Shown here one piece after another: positions 3,130 through 63,390 of a stretch of 64,000 bases of DNA. Origin of the DNA: Mobula hypostoma (Eukaryota); contig NC_086107.1 of the NCBI RefSeq assembly GCF_963921235.1, forward strand, positions 93,064,001-93,128,000, in the 5' to 3' direction. The notes under the pieces are model-generated. The model ran no database searches, was not told where the DNA came from, and saw only the letters and a program-made list of their open reading frames with translations. Position 1 is the stretch's first letter; every line of letters starts with the position of its first letter. Position numbers and translations under genes: made by a program.

Positions 3130-3932
3130 TAAATGGTTAGTAGGTTAATTGGTCATTGTAAGTTGTCCTGTGATTAGGCCAGGGTTAAATAGATGGGTTG
3201 CTAGGCAACACAGCTCATTGGGGCAGAAGGGCCTGTTCCACGCTGTATCACTCATTAAAAATAAAAATAAATGAAATAACTCTGCAACTCTCTATTACCC
3301 TATCAACCCTGGTTCTGTAGGAATTCTGAGTACCCATATTAAAACTCTGACGAACATTTTCTCACCTCAGAGAACAATCACAGCATCTCCAGCTCCTCCC
3401 ACATGAGCAAACCCAGCTGGTCACGGAGACACAACGACTGCCTCACAGTTCCAGTTACCTGAGTTCAATCCACACCTCGGGTGCTGTCTACACACATTCT
3501 CCCTGGGACCATGTGTGTTTCTACCAGGTGCCCCCGTCTTCTCCTGCGTTAGAGGGGTAAATTGACTACTGTAATTTTGCCAGTCTCTACACACGGACAA
3601 TGCCGGAGGAGCTCAGAAAGTCAGGCAGTATCTATGGAGGTCAATAAGCAGTCAATGTTTGGGGCCCAGATCCTTCATTAAGAGTCCAAAGTAAGGTGTG
3701 GGGGGTTGTGGAGGGGGCAAAAAGCCGAAATTGTCAACTGTTCATAAGGAGTAAGGAGTCTGTATGTTCCCTCTGTGACCGCATGGGTTTCCTTTCGGTG
3801 CTCCGGTTTCCTTCCACATTCCAAAGATGAGCGGGTTAGTCGGTTAAATTATCACATGGGTGTAATCAGGGGGCTCAGTCTCCTTGGGCCAGAGGGCCTG
3901 TTACTGTGCTAAATCTCTACTACTAATAATAA
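3130..3932 (+). mobile_element. Cluster of tRNA-derived SINE fragments (V-SINE/HE1-like)
   Basis: Body motif gtgaccgcatgggtttcc...gctccggtttccttccacattccaaaga and tail gggcctgtt...ctgtatc...aaataaa. The same family recurs at 15365, 25890, 37700 and 58300. Confidence 0.65.
3590..3687 (-). mobile_element. Penelope-derived hammerhead-type mini-element, degenerate (a further copy lies at ~3934-4050)
   Basis: Matches the family motif tgctggaggaactcagcaggtcaggcagcatctatgga...tttcgggcc...ccttcatcagg. Confidence 0.6.
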
Positions 3933-4074
3933 AGAATGCTGGAAGAACTCAGCAAGTTGAGTGGAGAGATCGCTTCTGGCGCAGACCCTTGATTAGGACA
4001 TGAAAGGAAGGGTGGCTGAAGCCAAAATTGCCGATTGCTTTTTCTCCCTTGAAAGTTTGCACCACATCCTATTC

Positions 4075-4310
4075 ACCCATCATCCACCATCAAAGACCCC
4101 CACCATCCAGGCCAGGTTCACTTCTCACTAATACCATCGGGCAGGAGGTACAGGAGCCACACCAATAGGTTCAGCAACAGTTATTACACTACAACCATCA
4201 GATTCCTGAACCAGCGTGGATAATTTCACTCACCTCAACACTGATACAATTCCACAACCTACAGACTCTCCCTCAAGGACCCTACAACCTACAGACCGCT
4301 CTCAAGCACT
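4075..4310 (+). mobile_element. Rex1-type LINE 3' fragment that hosts later CR1 insertions (continues ~7937-8050 and ~10560-10640)
   Basis: IKDPHHPG..FSLIPSGRRYRS..RFSNSYYTTTIRFLN. The 3' UTR resumes after each CR1, as in the intact relatives at 29452-29760 and 62300-62590. Confidence 0.65.
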
Positions 4311-4312
4311 CT

Positions 4313-4542
4313 CCAGGTGCCAGGGTCTGGGATGTCCAGGAGCCAGGGTCCGGGATGTCCAGGTGCCAGGGTCCGGGATGTCCAGGTCCCAGGGTCTGGG
4401 ATGTCCAGGAGCCAGGGTCCGGGACGTCCAGGTGCCAGGGTCCGGGACGTCCAGGTGCCAGGGTCCGGGACGTCCAGGAGCCAGGGTCCGGGACGTCCAG
4501 GTGCCAGGGTCCGGGATGGCCAGGTGCCAGGGTCCGGGATGT
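4313..4542 (+). repeat. 23-bp minisatellite, 10 copies of ccaggtgccagggtccgggatgt
   Basis: Directly visible. The unit is CR1 ORF1 esterase-coding sequence (PGARVRDV). Confidence 0.95.
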
Positions 4543-7500
4543 TTCTGATCACATCCATGACATCCTGAAATGGGAAGGTGAACAGCCAGAGGTCGTGGTA
4601 CATATTGGTCCAATGACATAGGTAGGAAAAGGGAGGAGGTCCTGAAAGCAGACTACAGGGAGTTAGGAAGGAAGTTGAGAAGCAGGACCACAAAGGTAGT
4701 AATCTTGGAATTACTGCCTGTTGCACGCAACAGTGTGTATAGGAATAGAGTGAGGTGGAGGATAAATGCGTGGCTGAGGGATTGGAACAGGGGGCAGGGA
4801 TTCAGATTTCTGCATCACTGGGACCTCTTTTGGGGCAGGAGTGACCTGTACACAAAGAACGGGTTGCACGAATCCATGGGGGACAATATCCTGGCAAGGA
4901 GGATTGCTAAAGCTATTGGGGAGAGTTTAAACAAGTTTGCTGGGGGTGTGGGAACTGAACTGAAGAGATGGAGGAAGTGGTGGTTGGCTCACAAATCGAG
5001 AAAGCTTGTAGACAGTGTGAGAGGGAGGATAGGCAGGTGATAGAGAAGGGATATGCTCAGTCTGATGGTTTGAGATGTGTCTATTTTAATGCAAGAAGTA
5101 TCATGAACAAAGCAGATGAGTTTAGAGAGTGGATCAGTACTTGGATCTATAATGTTGTGGCCATTACAGAGACTTGGATGGCTCAGGAATGGCTACATAG
5201 AGTGCCAGGCTTTAGATGATTTGGAAAGGACAGGGAGGGAGGCAAAAGAGATGGGGGCATGGCAGTGCTGATCAGAGATAGTGTCACTGCTGAAGAAAAC
5301 AAGGAAGTCATGGAGGGATTGTCTACTGAGTCTCTGTGGCTGGAAGTTAGGAATAGGAAGGGGTCAATAAATCTACTGAGTGTTTTTTATAGACCACCCA
5401 ATAATAACAGGGACATTGAGGAGCAGATAGGGAGACAGATTCTGGAAAGGTATAATAACAACAGTTTTGTCGTGGTGGGAGATTTTAATTTCCTCAATTT
5501 TGATTGGCATCTCCCTGGAGCAAGGGGTTTAGATGGGGTGGAATTAATTATGTGTGTTCAGGAAGGTTTCCTGGTACAATATGTACATAAGCCCACAAGA
5601 GGAGAGGCTGTACTTGATCTGATTTGGGGAAATTAACCTGGTCAGGTGTCAGACCTCTCATTGGGAGAGCATTTTGGAGATAGTGATCATAATTCTATCT
5701 CCTTTACCATAGCATTGGAGAGGGATAGGAACAGACAAGTTAGGAAAGTGTTTAATTGGAGTAAGGGGAAATATGAAGCTATCAGGCAGGAACTTGGAAG
5801 CATAAATTGGGAACAGATGTTCTCAGGGAAATGTATGGAAGAAATGTGGCAAATATTCAGGGGATATTTGCGTGGAGTTCTGCATAGGTACATTCCAATG
5901 AGACAGGGAAAGGATGATAGGGTACAGGAACAAAGGTATACAAAGGCTGTTGAAAATCTAGTCAAGAAGAAAAGAAAAGCTTATGAAAGGTTCAAAAAAC
6001 TAGGCAATGATAGAGATCTAGAAAATTATAAGGCTACAGGAAGGAGCTTAAGAATGAAATTAGGAGATCCAGAAGGGGCCATGAGAAGGCCTTGGCGAGC
6101 AGGATTAAGGAAAACCCCAAGGGATTCTACAAGTATGTGAAGAGCAAGAGGGTAAGATGTGAGAGAATAGGACCAATCAAGTGTGACAGTGGAAAAATGT
6201 GTATGGAACCGGAGGAGATAGCTGAGGTACTTAATGAATACTTTGCTTCAGTATTCACTAGGGAAGAGGACTTTGGCAATTGTAGGGATGACTTACAGTG
6301 GACTGAAAAACTTGAACATATAGACATTAAAAAAGAGGATATGCTGGAAATTTTGGAAAGCATCAAATTGGATAAGTCACCGGGACCGGATGAGATATAC
6401 CCCAGGCTACTGTGGGAGGCGAGGGAGGAGATTGCTGAGCCTCTGGCAATGATCTTTACATCATCAATGGGAACAGGAGAGGTTCCGGAGCATTGGAAGA
6501 TTTCAGGTGTTGTTCTGTTATTCAAGAAAGGGAGTAGAGATAGCCTAGGAAATTATAGACCAGTGAGTCTTACTTCAGTGGTTGGTAAGTTGATGGAGAA
6601 GATCCTAAGAGGCAGGATTTATGAACATTTGGAGAGGCATAATATGATTAGGAATAGTCAGCATGCCCCTGTCAAAGGCAGGTCGTGCCTTACGAGCCTG
6701 ATTAAATTTTCTGAGGATGCGACTAAACATCCTCAAATGGTAGGACACTCCCACCTCAGAAGGTAGAGCAGTAGATGTAGTGTTTATGGATTTCAGCAAG
6801 GCATTTGATAAGGTACCCCATGCAAGGCTTATTGAGAAAGTAAGGAGGCATGGGATCCAAGGGGACATTGCTTTATGGATCCAGAACTGGCTTGCCCACA
6901 GAAGGCAAAGAGTAGTTGTAGATGACTCATATTCCTCATGGAGGTCGGTCACCAGTGGTTGTGCCTCAGGGATCTGTTCTGGGACCCCTTCTCTTTGTGA
7001 TTTTTATAAATCACCTGGATGAGGAAATGGGATGGGTTAGTAAATTTGCTGATGACACAAAGGTTGGGGGTGTTGTGGATGGTGCGGAGGGCTATCAGAG
7101 GTTACAGCAGGACATTGATAGGAGGCATAACTGGGCTGAGAAGTGACAGATGGAGTTCAACCCAGATAAATGAGAGGTGGTTCATTTTGGTAGGTCAAAT
7201 ATGATGACAGAATATAGTATTGATTGTAAGACTCTTGGCAGTGTGGAGGATCAGAGGGATCTTGGGGCCTGTGTCCATAGGACACTCTAAGCTGCAGCAT
7301 TGGTTGACTCTGTGCTTAAGAAGGCATACAGTGTATTGGCCTTCATCCACCGTGGGACTGAGTTCAAGAGCTGAGAGGTAATGTTACAGCTCTATAGGAC
7401 CCTGGTCAGTCCCCACTTGGAGTACTGTGCTTATTTCTGGTCACCTCGCTATAAGAAGGATGTGGAAACTATAGAAAGGGTGCGCAGGAGACTTACAAGG

Positions 7501-7936
7501 ATGTTGCCTAGATTGGGGATCATGCCTGATGAGAATAGGTTGAGTGAACTTGGCCTTTTCTCCTTGGAGCGACGGAGGATGAGAGGTGACCTGATAGAGG
7601 TGTATAAGGTGTGTAGTGTGCATAGTCAAAGGCTTTTTTCAAGGGCTTAAATGGCTAGCATGAGAGGGCACAGTTTTAAGGTGCTTGGAAGTAGGTACAG
7701 AGGGGATGTCAGGGGTAGGTTTTTTATGCAGAGAGTGGTGATTGCGTGGAATGGGCTGCCTGCGACTGTGATGGAGGTGGATACAATAGGGTGTTTTAAG
7801 AGGCTCCTGGATAGGTGAATGGAGCTTAGAAAAATAGAGGGCTATGGTAACCCAAGGTAATTTCTAAAGTAATACATGTTTGGCACAGCATTGTGGACTG
7901 AAGGCCCTGCATTGTGTTGTAGGTTTGCTATGTTTT
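4313..7936 (+). mobile_element. CR1 LINE, 5'-truncated inside ORF1; degenerate ORF1 esterase plus ORF2 (APE endonuclease and RT)
   Basis: ORF1 [88 protein letters not shown]1 3' UTR. Many stops and frameshifts. Confidence 0.95.
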
Positions 7937-8050
7937 CCAGAACTGATGTACTCAGTATTATTTATTAATTTACTTTTTTTTTGTATTTGCAGAGTTTCTC
8001 TTGTTTTTCATATTGGTTGTTTGTCAGTCTTTGTTTGTGTGTAGCTTTTC

Positions 8051-10713: not shown

Positions 10714-11154
10714 TAGTAATTTTATATATTGCACTGGACTGCTGCCACAAAAACTGCGAGAAAATGAATCTCAGGGTTATATATGGTAACATATACAGTA
10801 CGTACTTGGGCAATAAATTTCCTTTGACTTTGAGATCTGAAGGGCAATTTCTTCATATGTGTTTATGGTATGAGATGACAGAGAAAGTGGTTGAGGCATG
10901 TACAATACCAACATTTACAAACTGGACGTTTGCATGGATTAGAAATGTTTAGAGGGATATGAGCTATACTTGGGCAAATGGGACTTGTTCGGGTGGGCAC
11001 CATGGATGAGATGGGCCAAAAGGCCTGCTTCCTTGTTGTATTACTCCATGAGTCCAGGACTCTATTTTTAAAGTGATAGTTTAAAATATCGAAGATGGAG
11101 GAAGAAGAGAAAAATAAAAAAAAACAATTTGAAGCAGGAACATGTTCCAACATT

Positions 11155-11395
11155 AACACACACACAATGCTGGTGGAACTCAGCAGGTCAGGCAGCATCT
11201 ATGGAGAGAAATGAGCAGTCATTGTTTCGGGCCAAAAGCACTTCATCAGGATCCTGCAGAGAATAAGATGTAGTTTATTAGGATGAAGGGTCGCAGCCCG
11301 AAATGTCGACTGTTTATTTCCCTTCATCGATACTGAGTTCCTCCAGCATTTTGTTTGAGTTACTCTGGATTTCCAGTACCTGAACCATTTCTGTG
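11155..11395. mobile_element. Penelope-derived hammerhead mini-element, inverted pair
   Basis: Left arm ...tttcgggccaaaagcacttcatcagg; right arm gatgaagggtcgcagcccgaaatgtcgactg...gagttcctccagcattttg. Confidence 0.75.
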
Positions 11396-11454
11396 TTTAC
11401 TCGTTCCATCAAAGTAGAACAGAGGACGTTAGGGTGAGGAGGAGCATTACTGTG

Positions 11455-16340: not shown

Positions 16341-17079
16341 TGATCATAATTTTGCATACCCCTATCAATTCTCTCCTTATTCTCCTATGCTCCATGGAAA
16401 AAAGTCCTAACTTATTCAATCAGGTCCTCCAGATCCAGCAACATCCTTGTGAATTTTCTTGGCACTCTTTCAATCTTATTGATATCTTTTCTTTAGGTAG
16501 GTGACCAAAACTTGACACAATACTCCAAATTCAGCCTCACCAATGTCTTCTACAATTATAATAACATCTCAACTCCCGTACTCAATACTTTGATATGTGA
16601 AGGTCAATGTGCCAAAAGCTCTCTTTATGGCTCTATCTACCTGTGATACCACTTTCAAGGAATTATGTATCTGTATTCCCAGAACCTTCTGTTCTACCGT
16701 ACTCCTCAGAAGTCACCATAGAAGTCCTACCCTAGTTTGTCCTCCCAAAGTACAACATTTCAAATTTCTCTGCATTAAATTCTACCTGCCATTTCTCAAC
16801 CCATTTTCCAGCTGCTCCAGATCCCAATGCAAGCTGTGATAGCCTTCCTCGCTGTCCAATGCACACCCAGTCTTGGTGTGTCATCCGCAAATTTGCTGAT
16901 CCAGTTAACCGCAATGCCATCCAGATTGCTGATAAAGATGACAAACAGCAATGGACCCAGCACCGATCCCTGCGGCATTCCACCAGTCACAGGCCTCCAG
17001 TTAGATAGGTAACCATCTACTGCCACTCTCTGGTTTCTCCAACAAAACCAATTTCTAATACAACTTACTGCCTCATCTT

Positions 17080-22166: not shown

Positions 22167-22341
22167 CCAACACACATAAAAGTTGCTGGTGGGCGCAGCA
22201 GGCCAGGCAGCATCTCTAGGAAGAGGTACAGTCAACGTTTCGGGCAGAGTCTCTTCCTAGAGACGCTGCCTGGCCTGCTGCATTCACCAGCAACTTTTAT
22301 GTGTGTTGCTTGAAATTCCAGCATCTGCAGATTTCCTTGTG
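22167..22341. mobile_element. Penelope-derived palindromic mini-element with 12-bp TSD
   Basis: Inverted arms caacacacataaaagttgctggtg... and ...caccagcaacttttatgtgtgttg. TSD cttatgtttctt at 22155 and 22342. Confidence 0.8.
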
Positions 22342-23421
22342 CTTATGTTTCTTGCAACTGCCTGCGATCGCTCTACAAATTTGCATCTCTAAATCCCTCA
22401 CTGTTGGGTGGTCTGAAGTATAATTTAATTAATATGATTATCCCTTTCTTATTCTTCATTTCTACCCATAAAAGCACAATAGATGAGCTCACCCGTCTAT
22501 TCTGGCTGAACACTGCCTTGATATGTTCCCTGACCAATAGTGCCACCCCTCTCCCTTTAATCCCCTCCCTCCACCACTCTATCACATCTAAAACAACAGA
22601 ACTCTGGAATATTGAGCTGCCAGTCCTGCCCCTCCTGCAACCAAGTCTCACTAATCACTACAGTATCATAATTCCAGGTGCTGATCCATGCACCAAGCTC
22701 ATCCACCTTTCCTACAATACTCCTTGCATTGAAATATACACAACTCAGAACACTAGTTCCACCATGTCCAATCTTTCAGTTCCTGACTTGGTATGCAGGC
22801 TTAACAACATCTTTCCCCAGAATCGCTCCTCTATCTGCTCTGGTACTTCGTAATCTATCCTCTGCAACCCCAACCCCAACCCCCATGCAGTACTAGCAAA
22901 CCTTCCCACAAGGATATTTGTCCCCCTCCAGTTCGGGTGGAAACTGTCCCATCTATACAGTTTCTACCTTCCCTGGAAGAGAGCCCAATGATCCAAAAAC
23001 CTGAAGACTTCCCTTTTGCACCAGCTCCTAAGCCACATGTTAAACAGCATGATCTTCCGATTTATGCTGTCACTAGCACGTGGTATGAGTAGCAATCCTG
23101 AGATCACAACCCTGGAGGTCCTGTCCTTTAACTTAGCCCCTAACTCCCTGAACTCACTCAGCAGAACCTCATCAGCCATCATACCCATGTAACTGGTACC
23201 AACATGGACCAGACCTCTGGCTGCTCACCCTTCCACTAAATAATACAATGAATTTGATCCAAGGTGTCCCTGACCCTGGCATCCAGGAAGGAACATGCCA
23301 TCCAGGAATCTGGTTTTTGTTCTCCTGTCTGTTCCCCTAAACATTGAATCCTCTATTACTACAGCTCTCATCTTCTCCCTCCTTCCTTTTGAAAGCACAG
23401 AGCCAGGCCCAGTGCCAGAGA

Positions 23422-25124: not shown

Positions 25125-25133
25125 TGCCAGAGA

Positions 25134-26135: not shown

Positions 26136-26705
26136 GCATTCTCATGGGCTATGATATAATGAGACTATTTCGGTGCTGCACAATGTGCAGGTATATCAGG
26201 TAGGAGCAGAAGCCTGCAGTTGTGTGTATGTCTGCATGCCTGTGTCTGTATGTTTCTATGTGTACGTGTTTGTGTTTGTGTCTGTATGCCTGTATGTGTG
26301 TATGAATCAGAAATGGGTTTACTATCACTGACTTATATGACATGAACATTGTTATTTTGAGGCAGCAGTACGATACAAGGACATAAAAATTATTGTAAAT
26401 TACAAAAATGAATAAATAATGCAAAACAAAAGGAATAACAAGGTAGTGTTCATGGTCTTATGGGTACTCTGTGTGTGTGTAAATCAGTGTCTATGTGCAT
26501 ACATGTGTATTTGTGTGTGTCTGTATATGTGTGTTTATATATCTGTATACAAGCACAAGACCATAAAATTCAAGAATTTTCCTGATCTACTTGATCTGAC
26601 CTCATGTCTAAATGAATTCTGATTCTTCACCTATTTAGATCCTTCAAGGAATCTCTTTTCTTTTTCTCACATTGTTCTCTCTGTCTGTCTGTCTGTCTCT
26701 CTCTC

Positions 26706-26925
26706 AAACACAAAATACCCTGCAGATGCTGGGATCAAAGCAACACTCACAACACGCTGGAGGAACTCAGCAGGTCGGGCAGCATCCGTGGAAACGATCA
26801 GTCAACGTTTCGGGCCGGAACGCTTCGTCAGGACTCTGATGAAGGGTTCCGGCCCGAAATGTTGACTCATCGTTTCCATGGATGCTGCCTGACCTGCTGA
26901 GTTCCTCCAGCATGTTGTGATTGTT
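26706..26925. mobile_element. Penelope-derived inverted-repeat element with hammerhead cores on both strands
   Basis: Plus strand CTGATGA(26836)-agggttccggccc-GAAA(26856)-tgtt. Minus strand CTGACGA(26831-26825)-agcgttccggccc-GAAA-cgtt. Arms are near-perfect inverted repeats. Confidence 0.85.
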
Positions 26926-26985
26926 GCTCTGTCTCTCTCTCTTTCTATCTATCTCTGTCTCTCCCCCCCTCTCTCTCTCTCTCTC

Positions 26986-27034: not shown

Positions 27035-27548
27035 GTGGTTGTAAACCCAGCCGGCTCCATCATGGACACTAGCCTCACCACAATCGAAGGATCTTCAAAA
27101 GGTGCTGCTCTTCATTAGGGATCCCCACGACCCAGGACGTACTCTCTTCTCATTATTGCCATCAGAGAGGAGGTAAGGGAACTCGAAGACACACATTTAG
27201 TGTTTTAGAGACAACTTCTTCCACTCTGCCATGAGATTTATGAATAGACAATGAACCGGTAAACAGTCCATCACTATTTATGCTCTCTTTTTGCCCTACT
27301 TACTTTTTTTAAAGCAACACACACAAAATGCTGGAAGAACTCAGCAGGTCAGGCAGCATCTATGGAGGAGAATAAACAGCTGATGTTTTGGGCCGAGACC
27401 CTTTATCAGGACTGGCGTGTTGCTATTTTTTAATATATTTCTTATTGTAACTTAGAGTATTCTTAATGCGTTGCACTGTACATCTGCTGCAAAACAATAA
27501 ATTTCATGACATACAGTATGTCAGCAATCACAAACTTGATTCTGATTT
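27035..27548 (+). mobile_element. Rex1-type 3' fragment interrupted by a hammerhead-type mini-element (27312-27415)
   Basis: Degenerate LLPSxRR..FRDNFFHSAMR and tail gattctgatt. The internal copy reads tgctggaagaactcagcagg...ccctttatcaggac. Confidence 0.65.
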
Positions 27549-33911: not shown

Positions 33912-34006
33912 CAAAGCAACACACACAAAATGCAGGAGGAAATCAGCAGGCCAGGCAGCATCGATGGAAAAGACTAAACAGTCGAGGTTTCAGGCCGGGA
34001 CCCTCT
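33912..34006 (-). mobile_element. Penelope-derived mini-element fragment
   Basis: Family motif cacaaaatgcaggaggaaatcagcaggccaggcagcatc...cagtcgaggtttcaggcc. Confidence 0.65.
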
Positions 34007-35794: not shown

Positions 35795-35938
35795 GAACCC
35801 TGACGAAGGGTTTCGGCCCGAAACGTCGACTGTATCTATTCTTATAGAAGCTACCTGGCCTGCTGCACTCACCAGCAACCTTGATGTGTGTTGCTTGAAT
35901 TTCCAGCATCTGCAGAATTCCTCATGTTTGCGTTTTTA
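35795..35938 (+). mobile_element. Penelope-derived mini-element with intact hammerhead core and 10-bp TSD
   Basis: CTGACGA(35800)-agggtttcggccc-GAAA-cGTC-gactg; TSD aatgcacctt at 35785 and 35939. Confidence 0.85.
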
Positions 35939-36258: not shown

Positions 36259-36929
36259 ATGCACCTTCCTAAAGGATATGAGTGAACTGGGCACATTTTT
36301 ATACCTAACTAGTAGTTTAGTTTAATCCAACAAATTTTTAGATTAACTTTTCTCAACTTTCAAATTTTTTTGTTATTATGTACTTTTTTGGCAATGTGTG
36401 TGTTAACGCCCAGCACCTCTGAGGATGTGTTGGGGGCAGTCAGCAAGCAAAGCCGAATATTCTGATGCCATCACAGCATGGCGACATATTTTTTAAAACT
36501 ATATTTCCTTTTCAAGTTTCCTGGCCACCATGGTTGGGACTTGAACTCATGTTTCCAGATTGAAGTCCAAGCTGTTGGCTCGCAGGACAGGAGCTTAACT
36601 GGCATGCTACCATAACTAGTAAATCTAGTTCATGACAGATCCCATTGGATGTTACATCATTTTAGCCAATGTTGTCTTTAAGGAAGTCATCAACAATCAT
36701 AGTTCTTTCATTTCGGAACCCTGAAAGAACTTCAAGTTAGGAACCTCTTTATCTTGAATCTTAAAATGCCTACAGCTGGAATTTGTGGTGATCATATGGT
36801 TCCTTTGCATAACAGGATAGCTGACTAAAGAAGCTAATCTATATACATATGAAATAGCAGGCATAATAATCCTTGTTTCACTCTTTCAAGTATTAGATAA
36901 TTTTAAATTTTGGAACAATACAAAATGGT

Positions 36930-37120
36930 CTCACCTATCACTTGCCAGCTTCTTCTCCTTCCTCACCCACCACCTTATTATTTTGGCTTCTTCCCTCTTG
37001 CCTTCCAGAACGGTCTTGGCTCAAAATATTGACTGTTTACCCCCGCCCATAGATGCTGCCTGACCTGCTGAGCTCCACCAGAATTTTGTGTGTGTGTGTT
37101 GCTCTGGATTTCCAGCATTG
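36930..37120 (+). mobile_element. Penelope-derived mini-element, degenerate
   Basis: gactgttt..catagatgctgcctgacctgctgagctccaccagaattttgtgtg..ctggatttccagca. Confidence 0.65.
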
Positions 37121-38262: not shown

Positions 38263-39365
38263 CACTCAGTGGCTACTTTATTAGATACATCCGATGCTCA
38301 CAAACTCTTCTCGGGCTTCCAGCCGAGTCCGGGTGTCGATTTTACCCGAGGTTTTGCTGACAAACTCCGTCATCTTCGTCAGGGATGATGCCTAGGCATG
38401 TCTAGTCCAGTGGTATACATACTGAATTCCCATCATCTGTCCCTCCTGATCGGTTAGTCCTGACCACAGGATTGACTTCGATGGCACAAAACTGATGTGC
38501 CACACCAATGGCTTTTCGGACCGCCTGGTGAAGGAACCGATTGGTATAAGACTAGCAAATAGGAATTTCAACAATGACAAAAGTTTCACTCTGAGTAAGA
38601 GCTGGAATATGATTTCAAACAAGATGGGGCAGTGGAAACCTGATTGGTTGAGGATGAGCCAATCAGGAGGGCCAGACGACAGGAGTTGAGTATATATATC
38701 ACCAGGCTAGACATGCTTAGGCATTGTCCCTGATGAAGATGGTGGAGATTGTCACTGAAGCCTCAGGTAAAATCGACACCTGGATCCGACTAGAAGCCCG
38801 GGAAGAGTTTATGCGTAACATGTGCCCAGAAAGTACTAGATCCTTTTTCTCAAATGATGGCTATTGCAAATATCTAATCGGCCACTAATGGCAGCAACTC
38901 AATGCATAAAAGCATGCAGATATAGTCAAGGGGTTCAGTTGTTGTTCAGACCAAACATTTGAATGGGGAAAAAATGTGATCTAAGTGACTAACCATGAAA
39001 TGATTGTTGGTGCCAGATGGGGTGGGCTGAGTATCTCAGAAACTGCTGACCTCCTGAGTTTTTCACACACAACAGTCTCTAGAGCTTACAGAGAAGGATG
39101 CAAGAAACAGAAAAAAAAATCAAGTAAGCGACCAAAAATACCTTGTTAATGAGAGAAGTCAGAGGAGAATGGTTAGTCTGGTTCAAGCTAACTCAAATAA
39201 CTGTGCATTACAACAGTGGGGTACAGAAGAGCATCTCTGAATGCACAACACATTGAACTTTGAAGTGGATGGGCTACAGCAGCAGAAGACCATGAACATA
39301 CAGAAATATACTGAGTGGCCACTTTACTACATATCTCCTGTCCCGGATAAAATGTCTACTGAGTG
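38263..39365 (+). mobile_element. Tc1-derived element, copy 2, interrupted by a Penelope element
   Basis: TA plus left TIR 38263-38291; body resumes ~38862; terminal TIR-TIR hairpin 39309-39365 followed by TA. Confidence 0.85.
38293..38848 (+). mobile_element. Penelope-like element 3' end with inverted pLTR and GIY-YIG C-terminal remnant
   Basis: Arms 38296-38461 and 38651-38814 are inverted. The centre encodes IDFDGTKL..DRLVKEPIGI..NFNNDKSFTLSKSW. Degenerate hammerhead cores (ctgatgaag/ctgacgaag) lie in both arms. Confidence 0.85.
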
Positions 39366-40799
39366 TATACTCTTGTTTTATGGGCGAGAGAAGAATGACG
39401 GTGTATCTGGTTGAAACCTATTGAATATTGAAAGGCCCAGAAAGTGTGGACATGGAGAGGATGTTTCCTATAGTGGGGGAATCTAGGACAAGAGAGCACA
39501 GTCTCAGAATACAAGGACGCCCCTTTAGATAGATAGATGGATAGATATGTTATTGATCCCAAAGGAAATTGCAGTCTCACAGTAGTATTACAAGTGCCCA
39601 GATATACACATATACAAATACTAGAAGAGAAGTAAGTAAGAAGGCAGTTGTGGAGGCCAAGTCATTGGGTATGTGTAAAGAGGTTGATAGCTTCCTGATT
39701 AGTAAGGACATCAAAGGTTGCGGGGAGAAGGCAGGAGAATGGGATTGAGAGGCATAATAAATGCTGGAATGGTGGAGCAGACACGATGGGCCAAAAGCCT
39801 AATTCTGCTCCTATCCTTATGGTCTTTATAGGTAGCTTATCTACATATCATTGTTGGCTAATGTGGCTTCAATACCCTATGTTTCAAAGCCCTCTGTATT
39901 TGTCCAATGCTTCTCTCCACCTTGTGTCTGTATTTTCCTATTCTCCTATGTTCTTTCGCTCTAATTACTAACATATATTATTATATCCCTCTGTTGCCCA
40001 TTGGATTGTCTGGCTATCTCTTGCTGTCCTCATCTTTTCATCTTGTTGCTCTTACACCTACAGGCTTACTTCAAAGACTCATGTTCTCAATATTATCATT
40101 TATTGCACAGTTTGTCTTCTTTGTACGTTGGTTGGTAGTCAATCTTTGTTTATGTATGGATTTACATAAATTCTATTGTATTGCTGTAATTTCCTGCAGG
40201 AAAATGAATCTCAAGGTAGTCTATGGAAACATATATGCATTTTGATGATAACTTTGACTTTGACTTTGAGTGTGACCACATGACCCAACATCAAGTCCTC
40301 TGTCAGTGGAGCTACATGTGATTTAGGTTGTTGAGGGTGAATGGGTGAGGGTGCTGTCAACAATGTTAAGAGCATTCATTACTTTGCTGTCCCAGTTAAA
40401 CAACTCTTCTCCAAGGCTGCTAGCCAGAATCACCTCCTTGTCTGCCAAAGTTCTCCTTCCTAACTCATCCTAGAGATATCCCAGGGCTATTCCAGTCTTC
40501 CAGGGCTGCCTGAAACTGATCCAATATGTAGAATGGATCTCTTTGGGGTGATGAGCATACCTTTGACATTGAAGCCTTTTTTTAAGTCTCTGCAACTCAC
40601 TGACTCATCTTTTCTAATATTCTCCTGGACATTTGTCGTGCATTTTGAACATCTTCCACTGTCATTTCTCTTTATCATGTCTCTATCCCCATAATGTGCT
40701 TTCCCCAGACCTTACACACACCCCAGAACTCATCTTCTAGATCTTTACTTTGGCTTTGTCTTTACTTTTTTCCAAAAGGGTGGTCGCAGTCTGAGCTAA

Positions 40800-41155
40800 C
40801 ACACACACACACACACACAAAGAGCTGAACTCAGCTGGTCTGGCAACATCCGTTGAGAAGAATAGAGAGCTAATGTTTCATGTCGAGACCCTTCTTCAGG
40901 ACTGGAAAGGAAGGGGAAGAAGCCAGAATAAGAAGCTGAGGGAGGGAGGAGTACGAGGTAGGTATTTAGTGAGCCCACCCCTCACCGCTCTCCCTCTGTG
41001 ATCTCTACTGCTTTCAGATTCTTCAACCATGTGAATCACCCATCATCTTCTAGCCCAAACACTGACTCCTTATTCCTTTCCATAGATGCTGCTTGACCTG
41101 TGGAATTCCTTCAGCATTTTGTGTGTATTACTCTGGATTTCCAGAACCTTTTGTG
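40800..41155. mobile_element. Penelope-derived mini-element, inverted pair, degenerate
   Basis: Left arm ...tttcatgtcgagacccttcttcaggactgg; right arm ccatagatgctgcttgacctg..cagcattttgtgtg. Confidence 0.7.
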
Positions 41156-41219
41156 CTTTTGGTCCTCTGGAATATCTGAGGATTCTGGAAAAGGTTATGC
41201 AAAACATATTTGGATATGT

Positions 41220-42464: not shown

Positions 42465-44422
42465 AATACTAGAATATGGGTTGTAGAGTCCTTGAAAATG
42501 AGTTCATAGGCTATGGAATCAGTTCAGAGTTGAGGTGAGTGAAGTTATCCACGTTAGCTCAGATGGTTTTCCTTAACACTCCACGAATGTGTCTACCAAT
42601 TACGTCAAAAAATACTCTATGCTTATTAACCCTTCTGCTCAAAGGAAGTTTCTCTAGGCACAGAATAATTTTATATGCAGCAATTAAATCTCAAGGCCTT
42701 CACTATTTCAGATCCATATTTATTCTTTATTCAGAATGAAATCCTCCAAAGGCTGAAAATAAAGCTGCATTAATGGGTGCCCATTGCAAATACAGTATTT
42801 AATGGTTAAATATTGCTGAAAATTAAAGGATTTCACCATATATATTTGATTTGTTTTGATAAAGAAATAAGCATGTTAAAAATTTGCTGGCATTTTCTAT
42901 TTTGTGCTGTATTTTCTGGTCATCACATTTCAACGAGTTAAGGCAATTAGACTCTATGTAGAATAATACCTTAAGTCTCATCTTGTGGTCAATATGGCAT
43001 CATTTGAGTAGAACAAGGGTACTTGGATCTCACAATACTGTGGAAGTTCAGCACGTCCCCAATGTATTCGCTGGAGTTCAGGGGTTGGTGTCTCATTGAA
43101 ACCTATCGAATATTGAAAGACCTACAAAGAATGGATGTGGAGAGGATGTTTTTTATAGTTGGAAAGTCCAGAACAGAAGACGCAGCCTCAGAATCAAAAC
43201 ACATGCCTTTAGAACAGAGATGAGGAGGAATTTCTTTAGACAGAGGGTAGTGAATCAGGCGACTGCGGAGGCCGAATTATTGTGCATATTTAAAGCGGAG
43301 GTTGACAGGTTCTTGATTAATAAGGACGTCAAAGGAGTCAGGGAGAAGGCAGGAGAATGGGGTTGAGAGCAAAAATAAATCAGCCACAATGGAATGGCAA
43401 AGCAGACTTGATGGGACAAATAACCTAATTCTGCTCCTATGTCTTATGGAATACGGACCCTCATCAGCATTTACCAGTCCACCATAGAAAGCATCTTGTC
43501 CTGATGTATCCCAGCTTGGTAAGGCAACTGCTCTGCCAAGCATTTTATTAGCATCACCCAAGTGCAATAATATAAAAAGGCATGTAATTTCAACAATTTG
43601 TTATTGACCCAGGAAATGCACGTTTATTTGTGTGGATAGGGAAGAGTGGAGATTGTCTTGAAGTTGTCATTTTGTTGCTTATTGTGTTGTGTGTTCTGTT
43701 GAGCAATGTCAGCATGTTATGTTGGTGGCAGGATGTGTGGTGACACTTGCCGGCTGCCCCCAGCACGTCCTCGGGTGTGCTGGTTGTCAACACAAGCGGC
43801 CGCATTTCACCGCACGTTTCGGTGTGCGTGTGATACAATAAGTAAGCAGGTCTGAATCTGAAAATGGTAAGAATTTGCGGAGAACAACAGGAATTCTGCA
43901 GATGCTGGAAATTCATGCAACACACATCAAAGTTGCTGGTGAATGCAGCAGTATCAGAATTTATTATCATATTATCAGAATTTATTCTGATAATCTATTA
44001 TCACAATTTGTGGAGAGTTGTGAGCACAGCCCAGTCCGTCACACAGAGTGGCCTCCCCTCCATTCACTCCCCCTCTAGACTTCCTGCTGCTTGGAGAGAG
44101 CAGCTATCATAATCAAAGACCCGCCCCCACCCTAGCCTTTCTCTCTTCTCCCTCCCTCCCATTGGTTAGAAGATACAAAATCCTGAGAGCACGCACCTCC
44201 AGGCTCGAGGACAGCTTCTGTTGTCAAACTCCGCACCTCCTCTACGCTAAGTAGATCTCTTGATAGAAGAGGTGCAAGAGTTGTATCCTCTTGCGCTCCA
44301 TTCATCAACCTGTTCTGTAGCATTATATTCTGCATTCTTGTTTCCTTCCTCAATGTTTCTATGAGTGGCATGATTTGTCTGGATGGCACACAAACAAAAG
44401 ATTTACACTGATTATCTGCGTA

Positions 44423-44983: not shown

Positions 44984-45389
44984 TATGTGAGAATAACCAT
45001 CCATCTCCGACTTCGCACGTAGTGGGGTTTCTCTCCTCCCTCTTGGGTCTGCGACTGATTCTATGCCGCTGATTGACATGGTCATGCAGGGCCGAACAGC
45101 CAGTTTCCATACTGGCTTAACACCATCCTTGCCATTGCACCATACCTATCCTAGGATACTAAATATTTCTTCTGCGACCACCGATTTCTTTTGCAGAGTA
45201 ATGCACACAGTATGTTGGAGAGGAATAAACGGCTTACGTTCCATGCAGAGACCCAATTGAACTCACTGGTTCACCTGGGGGTCTTCAGACTGCAATTAGA
45301 TTGGAGACCATTCTCCAATGATGAATCTTGTTATCCAGAAAAAAACACAAATTTAAGAAAGCTTTGATTCCCTTTTTTTTTTGTGGTTA

Positions 45390-52343: not shown

Positions 52344-52435
52344 GTCCTCCCTCAAACGCTTTTTGTGGTAAGGGCTTTCCGACCAGATATAGGAAGCAAC
52401 AGAAAGCCCAGACCGCAAAAAGATCCGAGGGGGAC
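52344..52435 (-). ncRNA. mir-129: microRNA precursor, mir-129 family
   Basis: Minus-strand 5p arm CUUUUUGCGGUCUGGGCUUUC (52422-52402) and 3p arm AAGCCCUUACCACAAAAAGCGU (52377-52356) match miR-129-5p/3p. The basal stem extends as gtccccctcggat / gtttgagggaggac. Confidence 0.96.
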
Positions 52436-53535: not shown

Positions 53536-53645
53536 AACACACACACACACACACACGCACAGTGCTGGAGGAACTCAGCACGTCACACGGCATCTATAGA
53601 AAAGAATAAACAGTCGAAGTTTCGGGCCTAGACACCATCAGAACT
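53536..53645 (-). mobile_element. Penelope-derived mini-element (another degenerate pair at ~54675-54852)
   Basis: tgctggaggaactcagca..aataaacagtcgaagtttcgggcc..catcag. Confidence 0.65.
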
Positions 53646-54140
53646 GCAATCTTTCTTAGGGCAGGTTAAGGGGAGATTTAATGGAGGGGTTCAGCATTGT
53701 GAACGTGGGAGTATTGTCAGACTGTTTCCGCTGGTAGATATTGGAAACTCATTCAATATAATTGACAAGACAGCCAAATGGGCGTCGACAATTCTTTTGT
53801 CGCCGCCAATTGTGCTCTGGAATATTCATCCTGGAATGGCGGTGGAAACAGATATAACGGGAACATTCAAAATAGAATTGGGAAATTGTTTAATCCAAAA
53901 AAGAAAATATTTTCAGAACTGCGGGAAAGTGAGCAGAGCTTTTGGACTAATTGTATAGACCAGTGACAGCAAGTTTGAGGGCAAGTGGTCTCTTTGTAGA
54001 TGTGCTACCATGGCTCACCTTCTCTGTGATGGTCTTTTTCTCTTCACTGAACCAATCTCATTCAAAGCAAGCTTCAGTCAGGCTACCTTCTTTAAATGTT
54101 TCCCCGTGTCTTTAACTTGTTGACACCCTACTGTACACAG

Positions 54141-54555: not shown

Positions 54556-57055
54556 ATGGCAGATAAATCTCTTCCCAACGTCCATTTGCTGTAAAAATCT
54601 ATATCTTAATCTTTATATACATATATATAGCCTCTAAGTTAAATATAAGAAGATGGTGGCTGATATACGTGTAAAGGAGACACAAGAGGCTATAAATGCT
54701 GAAAACTGTAGCAATGTTCTGAGGGAGGAACTCAGTCGTTCAGAGAGAATCTATCTGTGTACTTAGCCTATCATTCACTCTATCTTTCAAATGAAGGGTC
54801 TTGACCAGAAAGGCCAACTGTCCAATTCTATCCACAGATGCTGCCTGACCTTCTAGATAATATTTAATTTACCTCTATCGACAGGAACCGGGACAAACAG
54901 ATTTGTGCCTGCACTCTATGTGTATTTCTGCAGGAAACAGTTTTACAATTGGGATGAAGACTCCTTCAAAGAGAGACTACCGTCCCCAAATAGAGATGGG
55001 ATCTTGGGAGTCAGACTCTGGGCATGCACAGTATGAGAGCCTGGCATATCTCCAAACACGGGGTGGGAAGGGAGGTATCCACTGACCAGCAAATCCAAAT
55101 TCACTGAAGCTGCTGTCCCGAGAAACCTACTATTGTGCTCATTTAAATACCCATATTTAAGAATGTGTGCACTGAAGAACTTACCAGTTGTTGGTACCTT
55201 GATGCTTCGACTAGTGGATACGTCAAAGGGTAAAGATTAGCTCCTAAGGCATTGCTATTGCTTCTGACGTAGAGTATTTTATTACACTTTGTATTTACCA
55301 CTCACAATATTTTACAATGTTTTCTCTGGTCCGCCGGCTCGCGCCAGAGAATTCTGTTACCTCTTCATTATCTCGCCAGAAAGTACTTTCAGACGTGAAG
55401 CGGCCCACAGTGAAGGTCCGAGTACAGAGCGCTTTGTTTCTTAGCTGAGTTCTCTGCGGACGGACTAGAGATAGTCCCAACAAAAGTTTTACCTCGCCAA
55501 CTCTTCTCAGTCCCCCCTCCTCAGTCCACAGGCACTGAGGTGAATTGCACTGTTTTCTATTAGATCTCAGCACAAGACAATTCAACACTTTCCTATCGCT
55601 TCACCGGGAAAGTGTACACAGGGGAATCATTTCTGAGTTAGTGTCTAAACATAGATTGGACATTACAGTGCGTGAAGAGAGAATAGTGGCAAACAACTGT
55701 GACAAGCCTTCGCACCACCCCCCCCCCCGCCCCAACACACACACACACACACACACACACACATCAAGAATGTCTAGCTTATTTACTGCTGTCCATTGGT
55801 TGGAAAACCAACACGCCTCGTCCCCAACCTCGTAACCATGGGTTAGATTAGTAGGAAAGAGGACCCATAAAGTGAAAGGCATATCCCGCCCACACTCTGC
55901 TACCCAGACTCTGCTGTGTTATTTATGAGCCCCCCACATTATTTGCTTGCCAGATAGGGGCGGTGGTAGGTTCACGATAGCCGACGTAAAAGTTGGCTAA
56001 CGAGGCGGGGTTGGGTCTTATTCTGGTCCACTGCCCCGCCCCCTCTAAAATAAGGAAGTAAACAATAAGTTATTGCGTTATTGGAGACTGCGTTTGACTG
56101 CGCCGAGGTACTCAAATAAATCATTGCGGTACCCTGAAGAATCAGCCATACAACCCTCAGTTCCTCCCTCCAAAGTCCACACTAGTTTCTTGTAGGCAAA
56201 ATGTATATTTCAATACGATCAATATAAACACTTCCCGTCCGCTCTCTCTCTCTCTGTCTCTCTTTGCCTCTCTTTCTTTCTGTTTCTCTCTTTCTGTTCG
56301 TCTCTTTCTCAGTTCTCTGTCTCTGCCTCTCTCTCTTACACAAACTCTTTCTCTGTCTTACACAAACACACACACACACACACACACAACCGTCCCTTAT
56401 TAAACGTGCAGGAAGAATCCCCAAATTAACCTAAACCCGATTCCAGGATCTCTCCTGTCAGACTGGGTGCAGCCGGCACAGAGCAGCGCGTAGCAAGTAA
56501 AGCTTAGAATAACTGACCTCTACATCCCGCTCTGGCCGCCCGCTCTCTTTCAACTGCACATTTCCTCTGCTGCTCAAGCTGAACAAGCAAACATCTGTAC
56601 CTGAGATTTAGAGAGAGGCAGGAGTCATGCCGACATATCGCGCTGTTCTAATTGACGCGGCATCCTCGCTGTTTTCGCGGGGAAGTATTGGCTTCAGAAG
56701 CCACGTCTTCACACACTGCGGAGCCGAACTGCCTCGTTATTTATACCACAAACCATCGCCTGTATCTCTCCGTTGAACTCACAGCTTTATCCCGGCTTTT
56801 AACTTTCGCAGTGCCTGTTGCCTCATGGTCTCGCGCAACTCGCTCTCACAAGCATCCCGGATTTGGAGAAATATATAAATAAACAGTATTGCTAAAAATA
56901 ACGCGCGTACCTGCTTGTTGCCATCCCTCCGCGCTGGATTCCCTCTCGGATAGAAGTGATATTTCAATGTTAGACGGCACACTGTCAAGATGTACACAGA
57001 ACAGAATAGCCCTGTGTCTGAGAGACTGATTGAAAACATCTCTCTCGCTCTCTTT

Positions 57056-57499: not shown

Positions 57500-57500
57500 C

Positions 57501-60388: not shown

Positions 60389-60426
60389 TGGAGACAGACA
60401 GAGACAGAGACAGAGACAGAGAGAGA
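60138..60426. repeat. Compound (GA)n/(GACA)n microsatellite with higher-order repetition
   Basis: The marker gagtgagaaagaca recurs three times between (GA)n and (GACA)n blocks. Confidence 0.95.
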
Positions 60427-61228
60427 TGAACAAACTAACTGATCTTTTCTCCTGTGGAATCTTGTCACTCCTGAATTTGGAAGGTATAGCATTCATCATA
60501 GTTCTTTGACATTATCCAGTGCCTCTGTTGGAAAAGCACAATTGGAAAGATTGGGTGACAGTAATTCAATCTCAGTATAATGTCTTTGCTGCTTGAACTG
60601 CAGGCCAACACTCCAATATTAACTTCACACTAATATCCAAACTGATATTGGGAACAACCATTGCTATTGTACTCAGGATGATCATGAAGAAGTAAACAAT
60701 GGTCAATCATACTACAATTCTAATACTTCACGTCAGTCAGACCTGTTCTTGCTGATATTTATTTTCCAAGCTCTTTGTTCAAGCAGAATTTATCCAAATC
60801 TCTGGCTTGGTTAAACCTAATTGGTACTGGCCATCACACGCGGCTGAGTGTTTATTCTCTCAATTTCCAAGTGTGGATGTACTCTAATGGATTGGAATGT
60901 ACAACAAGATGATCACCTGATAAAAATCCTGATGGGATTTTGCAGTCTTGGTTGGGAATATTTCTTGCTCCTTCAATTAAAGCATAAAAATTAGCATTAT
61001 TCTTAGAAGAAATTAAATGCTGGCAGGTTGACCTCCCGTCGAAGACATCAATGCAGAGGTTATTCCCATTCACTGAACCTCCACGTATACACATTTTTTG
61101 TTGAGTCACAGGACATCAGGTGTTCTGAATGTCAACATATGGTGTAGTATCAATCTCTAATTGTCTCATAACATTAGTGACTTCCTAGAACCAGTTATTT
61201 TTTTCCTTTAAGGACATTAGCAAGCCAT

Positions 61229-61680
61229 TGCAACACACAAAATGCAGAAGGAACTCAGCAGGTCGGGCAGCATTTATGAAGAGGAATAAAGAGTCGATAT
61301 TTTTAACTGAAAGATCTCAGCCCAAAATGTCATTTCCTTATTCCTCTCCATAGCTACTGGCTCACTTGCTGAGTTCCTCCAGCATTTTGTGTATGTTAAA
61401 CCATGCAATTGTTGGACAAGAATGCTGGTTATTGCCATGACATAATAAATGCCACAGTCTCATTGTACACAGCAAGGTATCACAAACAGCAGTTGTGCCA
61501 GAGAACTTGCGTTAGTGGAGATACCGGAAACTGCAGGTGCTGGAATCCGAAGTGACACACAAGATGCTGGAGGAACTCTGCAGGTCGGGCAGCAGCTATG
61601 GAGGGGAATAAACAGTTGACGTTTCAGGCTGAGACCCTTCATCAGGACCGGAAAGGAAGGGGGAAGAAGCCGGAATAGTG
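61229..61680. mobile_element. Two Penelope-derived mini-elements: inverted pair 61229-61397 and minus-strand copy 61520-61680 with intact core
   Basis: The second copy reads ggtc-CTGATGA-agggtctcagcct-GAAA-cGTC-aactg on the minus strand. Confidence 0.8.
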
Positions 61681-62174
61681 AATCATTGAGATCTTTACCA
61701 CAATCTAGTATCTTCATTGTTAATATATATAATTGTCATTATCCTTATATTGCCCAGAGCCAACAAATGCTGCTCATACATTAACCCCTTCATTACTGGA
61801 ATCATTCTTCTGAACATCCTTTGGACCCTCTCCAATGTTAGCACATCCTTTCTCAGATAAGGGGCCCAGAACTGCTCACAATACTCCAAGTGCTTACTGA
61901 TTCATTGGCAATATCATGCTTTCTTCTAACAATGTGGAAACTTTTGTGCAGGGAAAAGAGACAGCCAGTTTGCACATATCAAGGTACCAAAAATGCTGGA
62001 AAGAAATAAAGAAGTTGCATTTGCATTGAGCCATACACATTCTTTACATACTGCAATCAATTTTACGGACAATAATGCACTTAAGGGGACCTAGCTTCTT
62101 GCTTTATGGGAAGAAACATGTAAACCAGTTTGAACACTGCAGGACAGAGCATCTTCAAGACAGGGTTGAATCAC

Positions 62175-63390
62175 AGTCTGGTATGGAAACACCAATGCAC
62201 AAGAATGGAAACATCTACAGACAGTGGTGGACACAGCCCAGCCCGTCACAAGCAAAGCCTTCCCAACCACTGAGCACATTAACAAGGAGCACCTGCCACG
62301 TAAAAGCAACATCCAATATCAAGGGCCCCCAGAATTCAGGTCATTCTCTCTTCTCACTACTACCATCAAGCAGGAGGTACAGGAGACTTGGGCCCCACAC
62401 CAGCAAATTCAGGAACAGTTATTATCCTACAAACATCAGGCCATAAGTTCAGTCCCCTCAATGTTGAACTGACGCCACAACTTATAAACTTATTTTCAAG
62501 GACTCTACAACTCATATTCCCATCATTATTTAAGTTTTTATTGTTTGCATGATTTGTCTTCTTTTGCATATTGGTTCTTCGTCAGTCTTTATTTAAAGTT
62601 CGTTTGTTCGTTATGTATCATGTCATATGACATGGGCAATCATTGTCTTTCCACGACCGTGATTATTTCTGGCAAATTTTTCTGCAGAAGTGGTCTGCTA
62701 TTGCCTTCTTCTAGGCAGTGCAAGATGGTTGACACCAGCCATTATCAATACCCTTCAGAGATTGTCTGCCTGCGATCAGTGATCACATATTCGTGATGTG
62801 TGCCAGCTGCTCATATGGCCATCCACCACCTGCGCCCCGTGGCTTCATGTGACTCCGATCGGTGGTGGGGGGGGGGTGGTGGCCCTAAGCAGGTGCTACA
62901 CCTTGCCCGAAGGTGACCTGCAGACTAGTAGAGAGGAGGAGCACCTTACATCTCCTTTGGTAGAGATATATCTCCACGCCACCACCCCTTGTTTATAGTA
63001 ATGTACCACATGCTGGAGGAACTCAACAGGTCAGGCCGTACCTATGGAAAGGAATAAAGAGCCAATGTTTCTGGCCGACATTCTTCAAGTGAGCTGGAAG
63101 TGAAGGGGGACAGGCCTAGTCCTGATGAAGTTCCTCAGATTGAAAAAATCGACTCTTTATTCCTCCCTATAAATTCTGGCCTGACCTGCTGTGATTCCTC
63201 CAGCATTTTCTGTGTACTCTGGATTTCCAGCATCTGCAGAATCTCTTGAGTTTTATCTTTGTTTATATATATTTATGTTTCATAAATTCTATTACATTAC
63301 TTTATTTTCCTGTAAATGCCTGCAAGACTATGAATCTCAAGGTAGTATATGATGACATATACGTACTCTGATAGTACACTGACTTTGAGA
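62175..63390 (+). mobile_element. Rex1-type 3' fragment containing an RTE-SINE (62598-62988, minus) and a Penelope inverted pair (63005-63250)
   Basis: LFSLLPSSRRYRRL..FRNSYYPTNIR. The 3' UTR resumes at ~63257 and ends gactttga. Confidence 0.75.

Follow-up and report, generated by a model that had tools for sequence, protein, structure and literature searches.

Short hammerhead-bearing repeats at high density in the Mobula hypostoma genome: most probably ordinary insertions of a Penelope-like element

The genome of Mobula hypostoma carries, in the 64,000 nucleotides of contig NC_086107.1 analysed here (positions 93,064,001 to 93,128,000, hereafter the window), numerous short repeats with a minimal hammerhead ribozyme motif. 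The question that they raise is whether they form a non-coding ribozyme retroelement of their own, as an earlier note proposed, or are the ends of ordinary Penelope-like elements (PLEs). A copy is present at all 16 positions listed in that note. A search with one window copy as query (E<1e-3) retrieved 21 arms, seed included, across 15 of the 16 loci, while a profile built from 20 window arms retrieved 22 arms at E<1e-3, among them the one at 43880, which is also a member of the training set. The same profile found no arm in 10 block shuffles (top score 7.3 bits) and none in the reversed window. Loci measure 71–361 bp and sum to 2782 bp, or 4.3% of the window. The claimed high density holds, with one locus per 4 kb, as does the division into two subfamilies, the second of which (subfamily B) accounts for three of the 16 loci (22167, 35799 and 43881). 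Many inverted pairs had also been reported: seven loci (11152, 22167, 26705, 40796, 54675, 61222 and 63003) are head-to-head pairs with both arms of at least 80 nt. Four further loci (3587, 3928, 27313 and 36913) have inverted stubs of 8–25 nt, which were called by eye. The family is ordinary in kind and high in density. Searches of an open-access library found no paper describing it in cartilaginous fishes; repeat databases may hold it.

The loci are listed below, with 5' ends numbered from the cleavage site and TSD standing for target-site duplication.

Locus 1, 3587..3745, minus strand: arm 3589-3696 with a short 3' end and a 5' end at about -43; inverted stub of ~20 nt at 3724-3745, with a SINE-like repeat after it
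Locus 2, 3928..4050, minus strand: arm 3935-4028, decayed and internally deleted; inverted stub of ~25 nt, the turn falling at the word that locus 1 also uses
Locus 3, 11152..11401: inverted pair of 11155-11261 (minus, short end) and 11282-11401 (plus, long end with tail); TSD-like repeat of 9 bp with one mismatch
Locus 4, 22167..22344: subfamily B inverted pair of 22168-22256 (minus, short) and 22249-22344 (plus, long); TSD of 17 bp with one mismatch, at 22155 and 22342
Locus 5, 26705..26931: near-perfect palindrome of 26705-26835 (minus, long) and 26836-26931 (plus, short), the arms 92% alike with 12 non-majority letters in common; TSD-like repeat of 14 bp within a microsatellite
Locus 6, 27313..27425, minus strand: arm 27313-27415 with a short end and a 5' end at -34; inverted stub of 8 nt; TSD of 8 bp
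Locus 7, 33912..34004, minus strand: solo arm whose 5' truncation lies in stem II (-21), with a short end; TSD-like repeat, imperfect
Locus 8, 35799..35931, plus strand: subfamily B solo arm with a long end; TSD of 10 bp (35785 and 35939); best-kept hammerhead (core, stem II and ACGU-C at 35800-35827), the stem I 5' strand being gone through truncation
Locus 9, 36913..37117, plus strand: arm 36926-37117 with a 5' end at -112 and ~80 nt of pyrimidine-rich sequence upstream; possible inverted stub of ~15 nt
Locus 10, 40796..41156: longest inverted pair, 40811-40985 (minus, short end, 5' end at least -120) and 41053-41149 (plus, tail partly kept)
Locus 11, 43881..43951, minus strand: subfamily B solo arm with a long end, truncated at +30 and so without hammerhead; TSD-like repeat of 7 bp
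Locus 12, 53537..53649, minus strand: solo arm with a short end bearing a CA/TG expansion, 5' end at -36; TSD of 8 bp
Locus 13, 54675..54854: old inverted pair of 54675-54754 (minus, long end, weak match) and 54775-54854 (plus, 3' part lost)
Locus 14, 61222..61397: inverted pair with a short end on both arms, 61222-61302 (minus) and 61308-61397 (plus)
Locus 15, 61524..61677, minus strand: solo arm with tail, 5' end at -59; hammerhead at 61645-61618 with stem II closed by G-U and the first pair of stem I mismatched
Locus 16, 63003..63253: inverted pair of 63005-63116 (minus, short) and 63118-63253 (plus, long), folding as a single long hairpin; TSD of 9 bp
45208..45254, minus strand: probable 17th copy, internally deleted (borderline match, E 0.02–0.07)
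38288..38845: second, unrelated hammerhead family, inverted pair of 38299-38461 (minus) and 38651-38843 (plus)

Each arm consists of the hammerhead and about 70 nt after it, to which some arms add another ~35 nt. The 3' ends face outward and, among 24 arms, 12 lie at +55 to +76, seven at +100 to +107 and three between, two being broken. Contigs of two related organisms show both end classes again, in the form of loose ends (41126 in three of four runs as shown, 41144 in four of four). The tail is found on one arm only in five of the six pairs with both ends readable, a count that alone is not significant (P=0.24). TSDs of 7–17 bp surround solos and pairs alike. A TSD score of at least 8 is reached by seven of the 16 loci, compared with 5/240 mismatched pairings and 6/320 local controls, and the observed score sum by 0/20000 permutations; the locus limits in this test were drawn by eye, with some TSDs already known at that point, and the other nine loci score below 8. 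The TSDs enclose the whole locus, hence each pair represents one insertion event. Locus flanks are richer in AT (66.6% versus 57.0%; 0/5000 random draws match), the control taking in GC-richer LINE DNA.

Variable 5' truncation, a head-to-head inverted copy, an optional tail and a short TSD are, together with the minimal type I hammerhead, features of PLEs. The loci are very probably dead-on-arrival pLTR insertions from an abundant endonuclease-bearing PLE. By analogy with published work on other PLEs, the RT-GIY-YIG protein of the element would cut both strands of AT-rich DNA, and reverse transcription would begin inside an uncleaved RNA, downstream of the hammerhead, at one or other of two sites that generate the short and the long ends. 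Synthesis would mostly stop after 70–200 nt. Priming by both cut strands, or fold-back of the cDNA, could then give the head-to-head pair, joined mid-way directly or via a few shared letters, and the inserted copies would decay neutrally. The hammerhead would belong to the parent pLTR, where it would cleave only with a tandem partner or with the protein of the element, and it is presumably not working in the stumps.

The 5' ends are scattered from -120 to +30 relative to the cleavage site and occupy 23 positions in 24 arms. Twelve of them crowd at -20 to -38, within the 5' half of the hammerhead. This crowding is tighter than plain random truncation suggests and tells against the PLE reading. 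A doubtful though conceivable proposal is that the hammerhead fold, or element protein bound to it, is a roadblock that stops the reverse transcriptase, or that a short source RNA begins there. If this were so, one Penelope family would mass-produce hammerhead stumps of 90–135 nt and palindromes, amounting to about 4% of the window; the ribozyme motif would have a non-catalytic role, setting insertion length, and the genome would be seeded with very many hairpin-forming repeats. The crowding would also suit a short, SINE-like non-autonomous PLE derivative, with an RNA starting near the hammerhead 5' edge as template of most copies and Penelope protein acting in trans. Non-autonomous PLEs are known, as reported for Chlamys MRC1 (PMC8557442), no ORF-bearing copy is present in the 64 kb, and summed contig depth in the related organisms drops steeply upstream of the hammerhead in four of four runs, although this drop is gradual and confounded by divergence of the reference copy, and the depth of contigs does not measure copy number. 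Such a derivative is nevertheless unlikely: the 12 clustered ends fall at 11 different positions, so that the 5' end is not fixed, no tRNA or tRNA-like head was found, and six arms continue to -43 to -120 in upstream sequence common to the copies. This shared sequence goes on past the hammerhead both in window copies and in the related-organism contigs; no window copy reaches beyond ~120 nt upstream. Spliced templates, suggested by a run of pyrimidines followed by CAG at stem I, were rejected because copies ending at -32 to -38 share no upstream exon.

The motif itself bears on the proposal of the earlier note, namely a non-LTR retrozyme whose self-cleaving circular RNA would provide monomers for reverse transcription by a PLE enzyme. 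The note was right about the consensus, which is the majority sequence of the family (stem I CAGUC/GACUG, stem II GGG/CCC, stem III ACGU); it is a minimal type I hammerhead of the Penelope type, and its stem III is palindromic. The same letters occur in loose-end consensuses from the contigs of both related organisms. A type I hammerhead whose ACGU is compatible with dimers is what a retrozyme would have, and animal retrozymes are described as arising from PLE pLTRs and as present in the only chondrichthyan sampled. The individual copies, however, argue against it. Both core boxes are kept in only seven arms, none of these with all stems intact, and three arms (22249, 43881 and 54675) start downstream of the motif and lack it. 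Core cells of the alignment are changed in 20 of 148 cases and tail cells in 176 of 1017 (p=0.29), that is, the core has no excess conservation and decays as fast as the remainder of the arm; stem II cells are changed in 24 of 87. Two-sided compensatory changes were sought in the stems of the window copies and none was seen. Rfam hammerhead families gave no match with the whole window or with the best copy alone; Rfam miRNA matches at 22195-22281 and 61255-61372 were discarded, being below gathering scores and arising from the palindromes. Single hammerhead copies and tails fold no better than shuffles in seven of eight cases. The majority motif favours an alternative fold (-13.7 versus -10.1 kcal/mol), which says neither yes nor no on dimer cleavage. 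Two inverted pairs fold as long duplexes that bury the hammerhead (z -22.5 and -5.3), and since the hammerheads of a pair lie on opposite strands and pair mutually, a cis dimer cannot form.

The arrangement of the copies likewise opposes a retrozyme. The window holds no head-to-tail unit (the element appears in 0/29 TRF rows), and no fixed monomer between cleavage sites; no arm is preceded by tail sequence, and none of the 24 arms has its 5' end at the cleavage site, the nearest being at -7 and +5. One contig, in one of four runs, comes back to a point no more than 2 nt from the cleavage site, but its 35 joining letters lack the hammerhead 5' half. A retrozyme is thus very unlikely. Two 3' ends, inverted pairs and TSDs are what has been published as the mark of ordinary PLE insertions, and the truncation points, the sequence observation by which the earlier note wished its proposal to be judged, fit ordinary Penelope ends. 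Least probable of all, and largely refuted here, is a MITE or foldback DNA transposon with terminal inverted repeats captured from a Penelope end, which would agree with the seven palindromic, TSD-flanked loci and with arms 91–92% alike in two pairs, but not with a junction that differs in every pair, asymmetric arm ends with the tail on one side, TSDs that vary in length and also flank solos, or a partner arm that is no closer than other copies in four of six pairs. One template for both arms was rejected as a rule, as it fits at most two of the six pairs.

For the preferred reading of PLE insertions, the parent element was sought in the window and beyond. As claimed, no coding sequence is attached to the repeats: none of 279 frames of at least 65 amino acids matches Pfam GIY-YIG. 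A motif scan of the window for Penelope RT/endonuclease words gave nothing convincing, the window contains no pLTR-ORF-pLTR partial tandem source copies, and no protein joining the repeat to an ORF was found. The sole HMMER match, protein P0003, was dismissed as an unrelated sequence of repetitive character to which Pfam assigns no family, and exact-pattern scans gave no match in metagenome contigs, prokaryote genomes or viral contigs. In the alignment, most copies have a stop about 21 codons into the frame that opens with the hammerhead ATG, and subfamily B is without this ATG, so the tail looks non-coding.

The second hammerhead family (38288..38845), which was absent from the earlier note, has the same layout as the first, which agrees with the PLE reading. 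Its minimal hammerhead-like motifs at 38382 (minus) and 38730 (plus) have a longer stem II, and its right arm has an extra tail. The spacer has no sequence homologue and no Pfam match; its resemblance to the end of a GIY-YIG endonuclease (Atlas scores 0.83–0.87) is a lead only, and might indicate a coding remnant.

The window loci can be compared with several known systems. PLE insertions are described as 5'-truncated, with a head-to-head inverted copy, a 30–40 bp tail usually at one end only and TSDs of about 8–10 bp that enclose the unit as a whole (Arkhipova et al. 2013, PMC3846280; Craig et al. 2021, PMC8557442). Truncation, inverted copy, tail and TSD are shared with these endonuclease-bearing PLEs, whereas the window copies are all of 70–200 nt per arm, without ORF, and reach 16 loci in 64 kb. 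In the Anolis Poseidon element PAc, reverse transcription is reported to start at either of two neighbouring sites beyond the hammerhead, which gives an optional tail; the template is uncleaved RNA, targets are AT-rich, and each of the two strands is cut and then extended (Frangieh et al. 2024, PMC11167929). The optional tail and AT-rich targets are alike here, while the PAc ORF starts in the hammerhead, unlike the interrupted or missing ATG frame of the window copies. Non-LTR retrozymes, defined by head-to-tail tandem units, complete hammerheads and circular RNA (Cervera and De la Pena 2020, PMC7229834; Li et al. 2026, 10.64898/2026.07.22.740005), have in common with the loci their non-coding nature, type I hammerhead and PLE pLTR origin, and differ from them in that the window has neither tandems nor a fixed monomer and its minimal motifs are decayed.

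The closest likeness in motif is to the metazoan PLE hammerheads, described as mostly single motifs from truncated PLEs with opposite-strand pairs 100–700 bp apart (Cervera and De la Pena 2014, PMC4209133). The CUGANGA / GAAA core, G10.1-C11.1, one bulged base before stem II, the palindromic stem III remnant, the 5-bp stem I and the predominance of single motifs with opposite-strand pairs are all shared; stem II is shorter here (3–4 bp versus 7–8 bp in Schistosoma). The D. virilis Penelope intron is reported to end at helix I, and the pyrimidine tract with its terminal CAG at stem I is reminiscent of that end. The kind is therefore already known, and the loci do not look like a new self-copying ribozyme element. 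The useful point is one of scale. The hosts named in that survey's account are bony fishes, coelacanth, Xenopus and reptiles, cartilaginous fishes not being among them, and the richest vertebrates, coelacanth and Xenopus, have 4,000–9,000 minimal hammerheads per genome (PMC4209133), to be set against one locus per 4 kb here. The palindromes could, when read through, yield double-stranded RNA. Should the window be representative, the genome would be a very large natural sample for the formation of PLE inverted pairs and tails, and one that also bears on whether the hammerhead ever cleaves in vivo.

The short hammerhead-bearing repeats of this family behave like, and very probably are, debris of an ordinary Penelope-like element (PLE). 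All 16 loci listed in the earlier note were recovered in the window by seed and profile searches, and a borderline further copy lies near 45208. With one window copy as seed, 21 single-orientation copies, or arms, were found at E<1e-3, the seed itself included; a profile trained on 20 window arms found 22 at the same threshold and had no match in 10 shuffles or in the reversed window. The family covers 2782 bp (4.3% of the window) and its locus density there is unusual. The earlier observation of the repeats is right, also in that inverted pairs are present (seven loci, with short inverted stubs at four others), that there are two subfamilies (B at 3 of the 16 loci) and that coding sequence is absent: none of 279 frames of at least 65 aa, low-complexity frames being excluded from the scan, matches GIY-YIG.

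The following other features were found in the window:
52353-52428, minus strand: mir-129 precursor (Rfam, 75.5 bits; gathering score 48.6)
4169-7850, 19755-21630 and 31292-33489: CR1-like LINE copies
4312-4542: 23-bp minisatellite in the first CR1-like copy, before the endonuclease
4582-5037: SGNH esterase-like frame in the same copy, before the endonuclease
17009-18777 and 23609-25537: LINE remnants of other type with reverse transcriptase matches, the second also with an ALKBH8_N match
610-1055 and 46574-47267: repeat with copies in inverted orientation

The window is vertebrate DNA, because mir-129 exceeds the Rfam threshold and LINE remnants (reverse transcriptase and endonuclease) are common; its repeat families would point to a cartilaginous fish as host. 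The LINE remnants at 17009-18777 and 23609-25537 are presumably L1-like and Rex1/L2-like, and we take the frames of the repeat at 610-1055 and 46574-47267, which have no Pfam match, to resemble Tc1 transposase.

The majority sequence of the family bears out the proposed hammerhead consensus, with core boxes, a 5-bp stem I and ACGU replacing stem III; its stem II has 3-4 bp after one bulged A. Both core boxes are matched at nine places in the window, seven of them family arms, and none of the nine combines an intact core with intact stem I, stem II and ACGU. In the best-kept copy (35800) truncation has removed the 5' stem I strand. The copies show neutral decay: in arms of subfamily A the share of altered cells is 20/148 for core letters versus 176/1017 for tail letters (p=0.29), 26/123 for stem I, 24/87 for stem II and 25/48 for CpG-prone positions, with no two-sided compensatory change in the stems. 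Dimer cleavage has reportedly been described by Lunse et al. (cited in PMC6765202). The hammerheads of inverted pairs would be unable to act as a cis dimer since the pairs are predicted to fold into long duplexes. At 40899-40930 and 61645-61677 (minus strand in both cases) the 5' stem I strand coincides with a pyrimidine tract that has CAG at its end, resembling in sequence the intron terminus at helix I in Penelope of D. virilis.

On the hammerhead strand an arm consists of a variable pyrimidine-rich upstream region, the hammerhead, ~70 nt and sometimes a tail of ~35 nt more. The 3' ends of the 24 measured arms fall into two main classes relative to the predicted cleavage site (12 at +55 to +76, 7 at +100 to +107, 3 intermediate, 2 broken). 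Their 5' ends range from -120, the limit of the ruler used, to +30, with one position used twice and the rest unique; 12 of 24 are crowded at -20 to -38, in the 5' half of the hammerhead, and no arm begins at the cleavage site. The inference that the family is a retrozyme, a self-cleaving non-coding element, is not supported.

Arms of inverted pairs lie head to head with their 3' ends outward. The tail is on one arm in five of six readable pairs and on both in none, a pattern that does not reach significance by itself (P=0.24). Judged by eye, some junctions are on 2-6 shared letters and others are direct or have filler. The arms at 26705-26931 share 12 non-majority letters, against at most five in 115 non-partner comparisons. 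Possible causes are a single template for both arms, membership in a third subfamily, or gene conversion between the arms of this spacer-less palindrome. The neighbouring loci at 3720-3745 and 4018-4050 reverse at one common word, where upstream sequence and hammerhead are alike at ~6/8 letters; the junction may have recurred through microhomology, or the stretch may have been duplicated locally long ago.

Flanking direct repeats score at least 8 at 7/16 loci, versus 5/240 mismatched pairings and 6/320 local controls, and the observed score sum was reached by 0/20000 permutations, with locus boundaries placed by eye and one repeat inside a microsatellite. AT content of the flanking DNA is 66.6% versus 57.0%. 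By eye, the element's first letters seem to be shared with the target-site duplication (TSD) at the short ends at 22155-22171, 33902-33918 and 61215-61230, which would suggest that target and template pair over a few bases at initiation.

An unrelated family is present as a single inverted pair (38288-38845); it has a minimal hammerhead-like motif of its own, in which stem II is longer, and one of its arms carries a tail. This pair suggests that PLE insertions in this genome generally produce the tail-plus-inverted-pair layout. The spacer is occupied by an open frame that continues into the right arm and is treated as a real protein by a protein language model (recognition 2700; first hits 0.95, unnamed), whose nearest named neighbours are GIY-YIG clusters (0.83-0.87; family in 11-17% of cluster members). 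We assume that this frame fits PLE endonuclease C-termini; its putative identity as a GIY-YIG C-terminus is only a lead, because Pfam and sequence searches of the spacer gave no match.

Six sequencing runs from related organisms, none recorded as RNA, have a small share of matching words, and four were compared with the inverted pair at 40796..41156. In these four, 1294-2953 contigs per run match 461 bases of it; such contigs carry no information on copy number, expression or cleavage. Loose contig ends have the same hammerhead letters as the window family and include both 3' end classes; common sequence extends upstream of the hammerhead, and several joints are inverted pairs with other junctions. 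In one run (X1; 41062-41144) a single contig leaves the tail, passes through 35 other letters and re-enters the element within 2 nt of the predicted cleavage site.

Geometry, ends, TSDs and decay of the family are seen directly in the window. Internal reverse transcription starts, double-strand cutting and AT preference would apply by analogy with other PLEs, synthesis may have terminated early, the pairs may arise from priming on both strands or from fold-back, and an ORF-bearing parent element probably exists.

In the literature compared, which also included PMC6155905, PMC8969392 and PMC6765202, tandem units and circles define retrozymes (PMC7229834; 10.64898/2026.07.22.740005), and minimal hammerheads are reported both singly, from truncated PLEs, and in opposite-strand pairs (Cervera and De la Pena, PMC4209133). 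According to the portions used of Frangieh et al. (PMC11167929), the hammerhead of the PLE examined there cleaves with protein only, the template is uncleaved RNA, both strands of AT-rich DNA are cut and two reverse transcription start sites explain the tail. As far as the excerpts compared go, PLE insertions are truncated at the 5' end, adjoin a likewise 5'-truncated copy in inverted orientation and have a tail of 30-40 bp, often at one end (Craig et al., PMC8557442); TSDs of 8-10 bp and palindromic junctions in head-to-head arrangement are further features (Arkhipova et al., PMC3846280).
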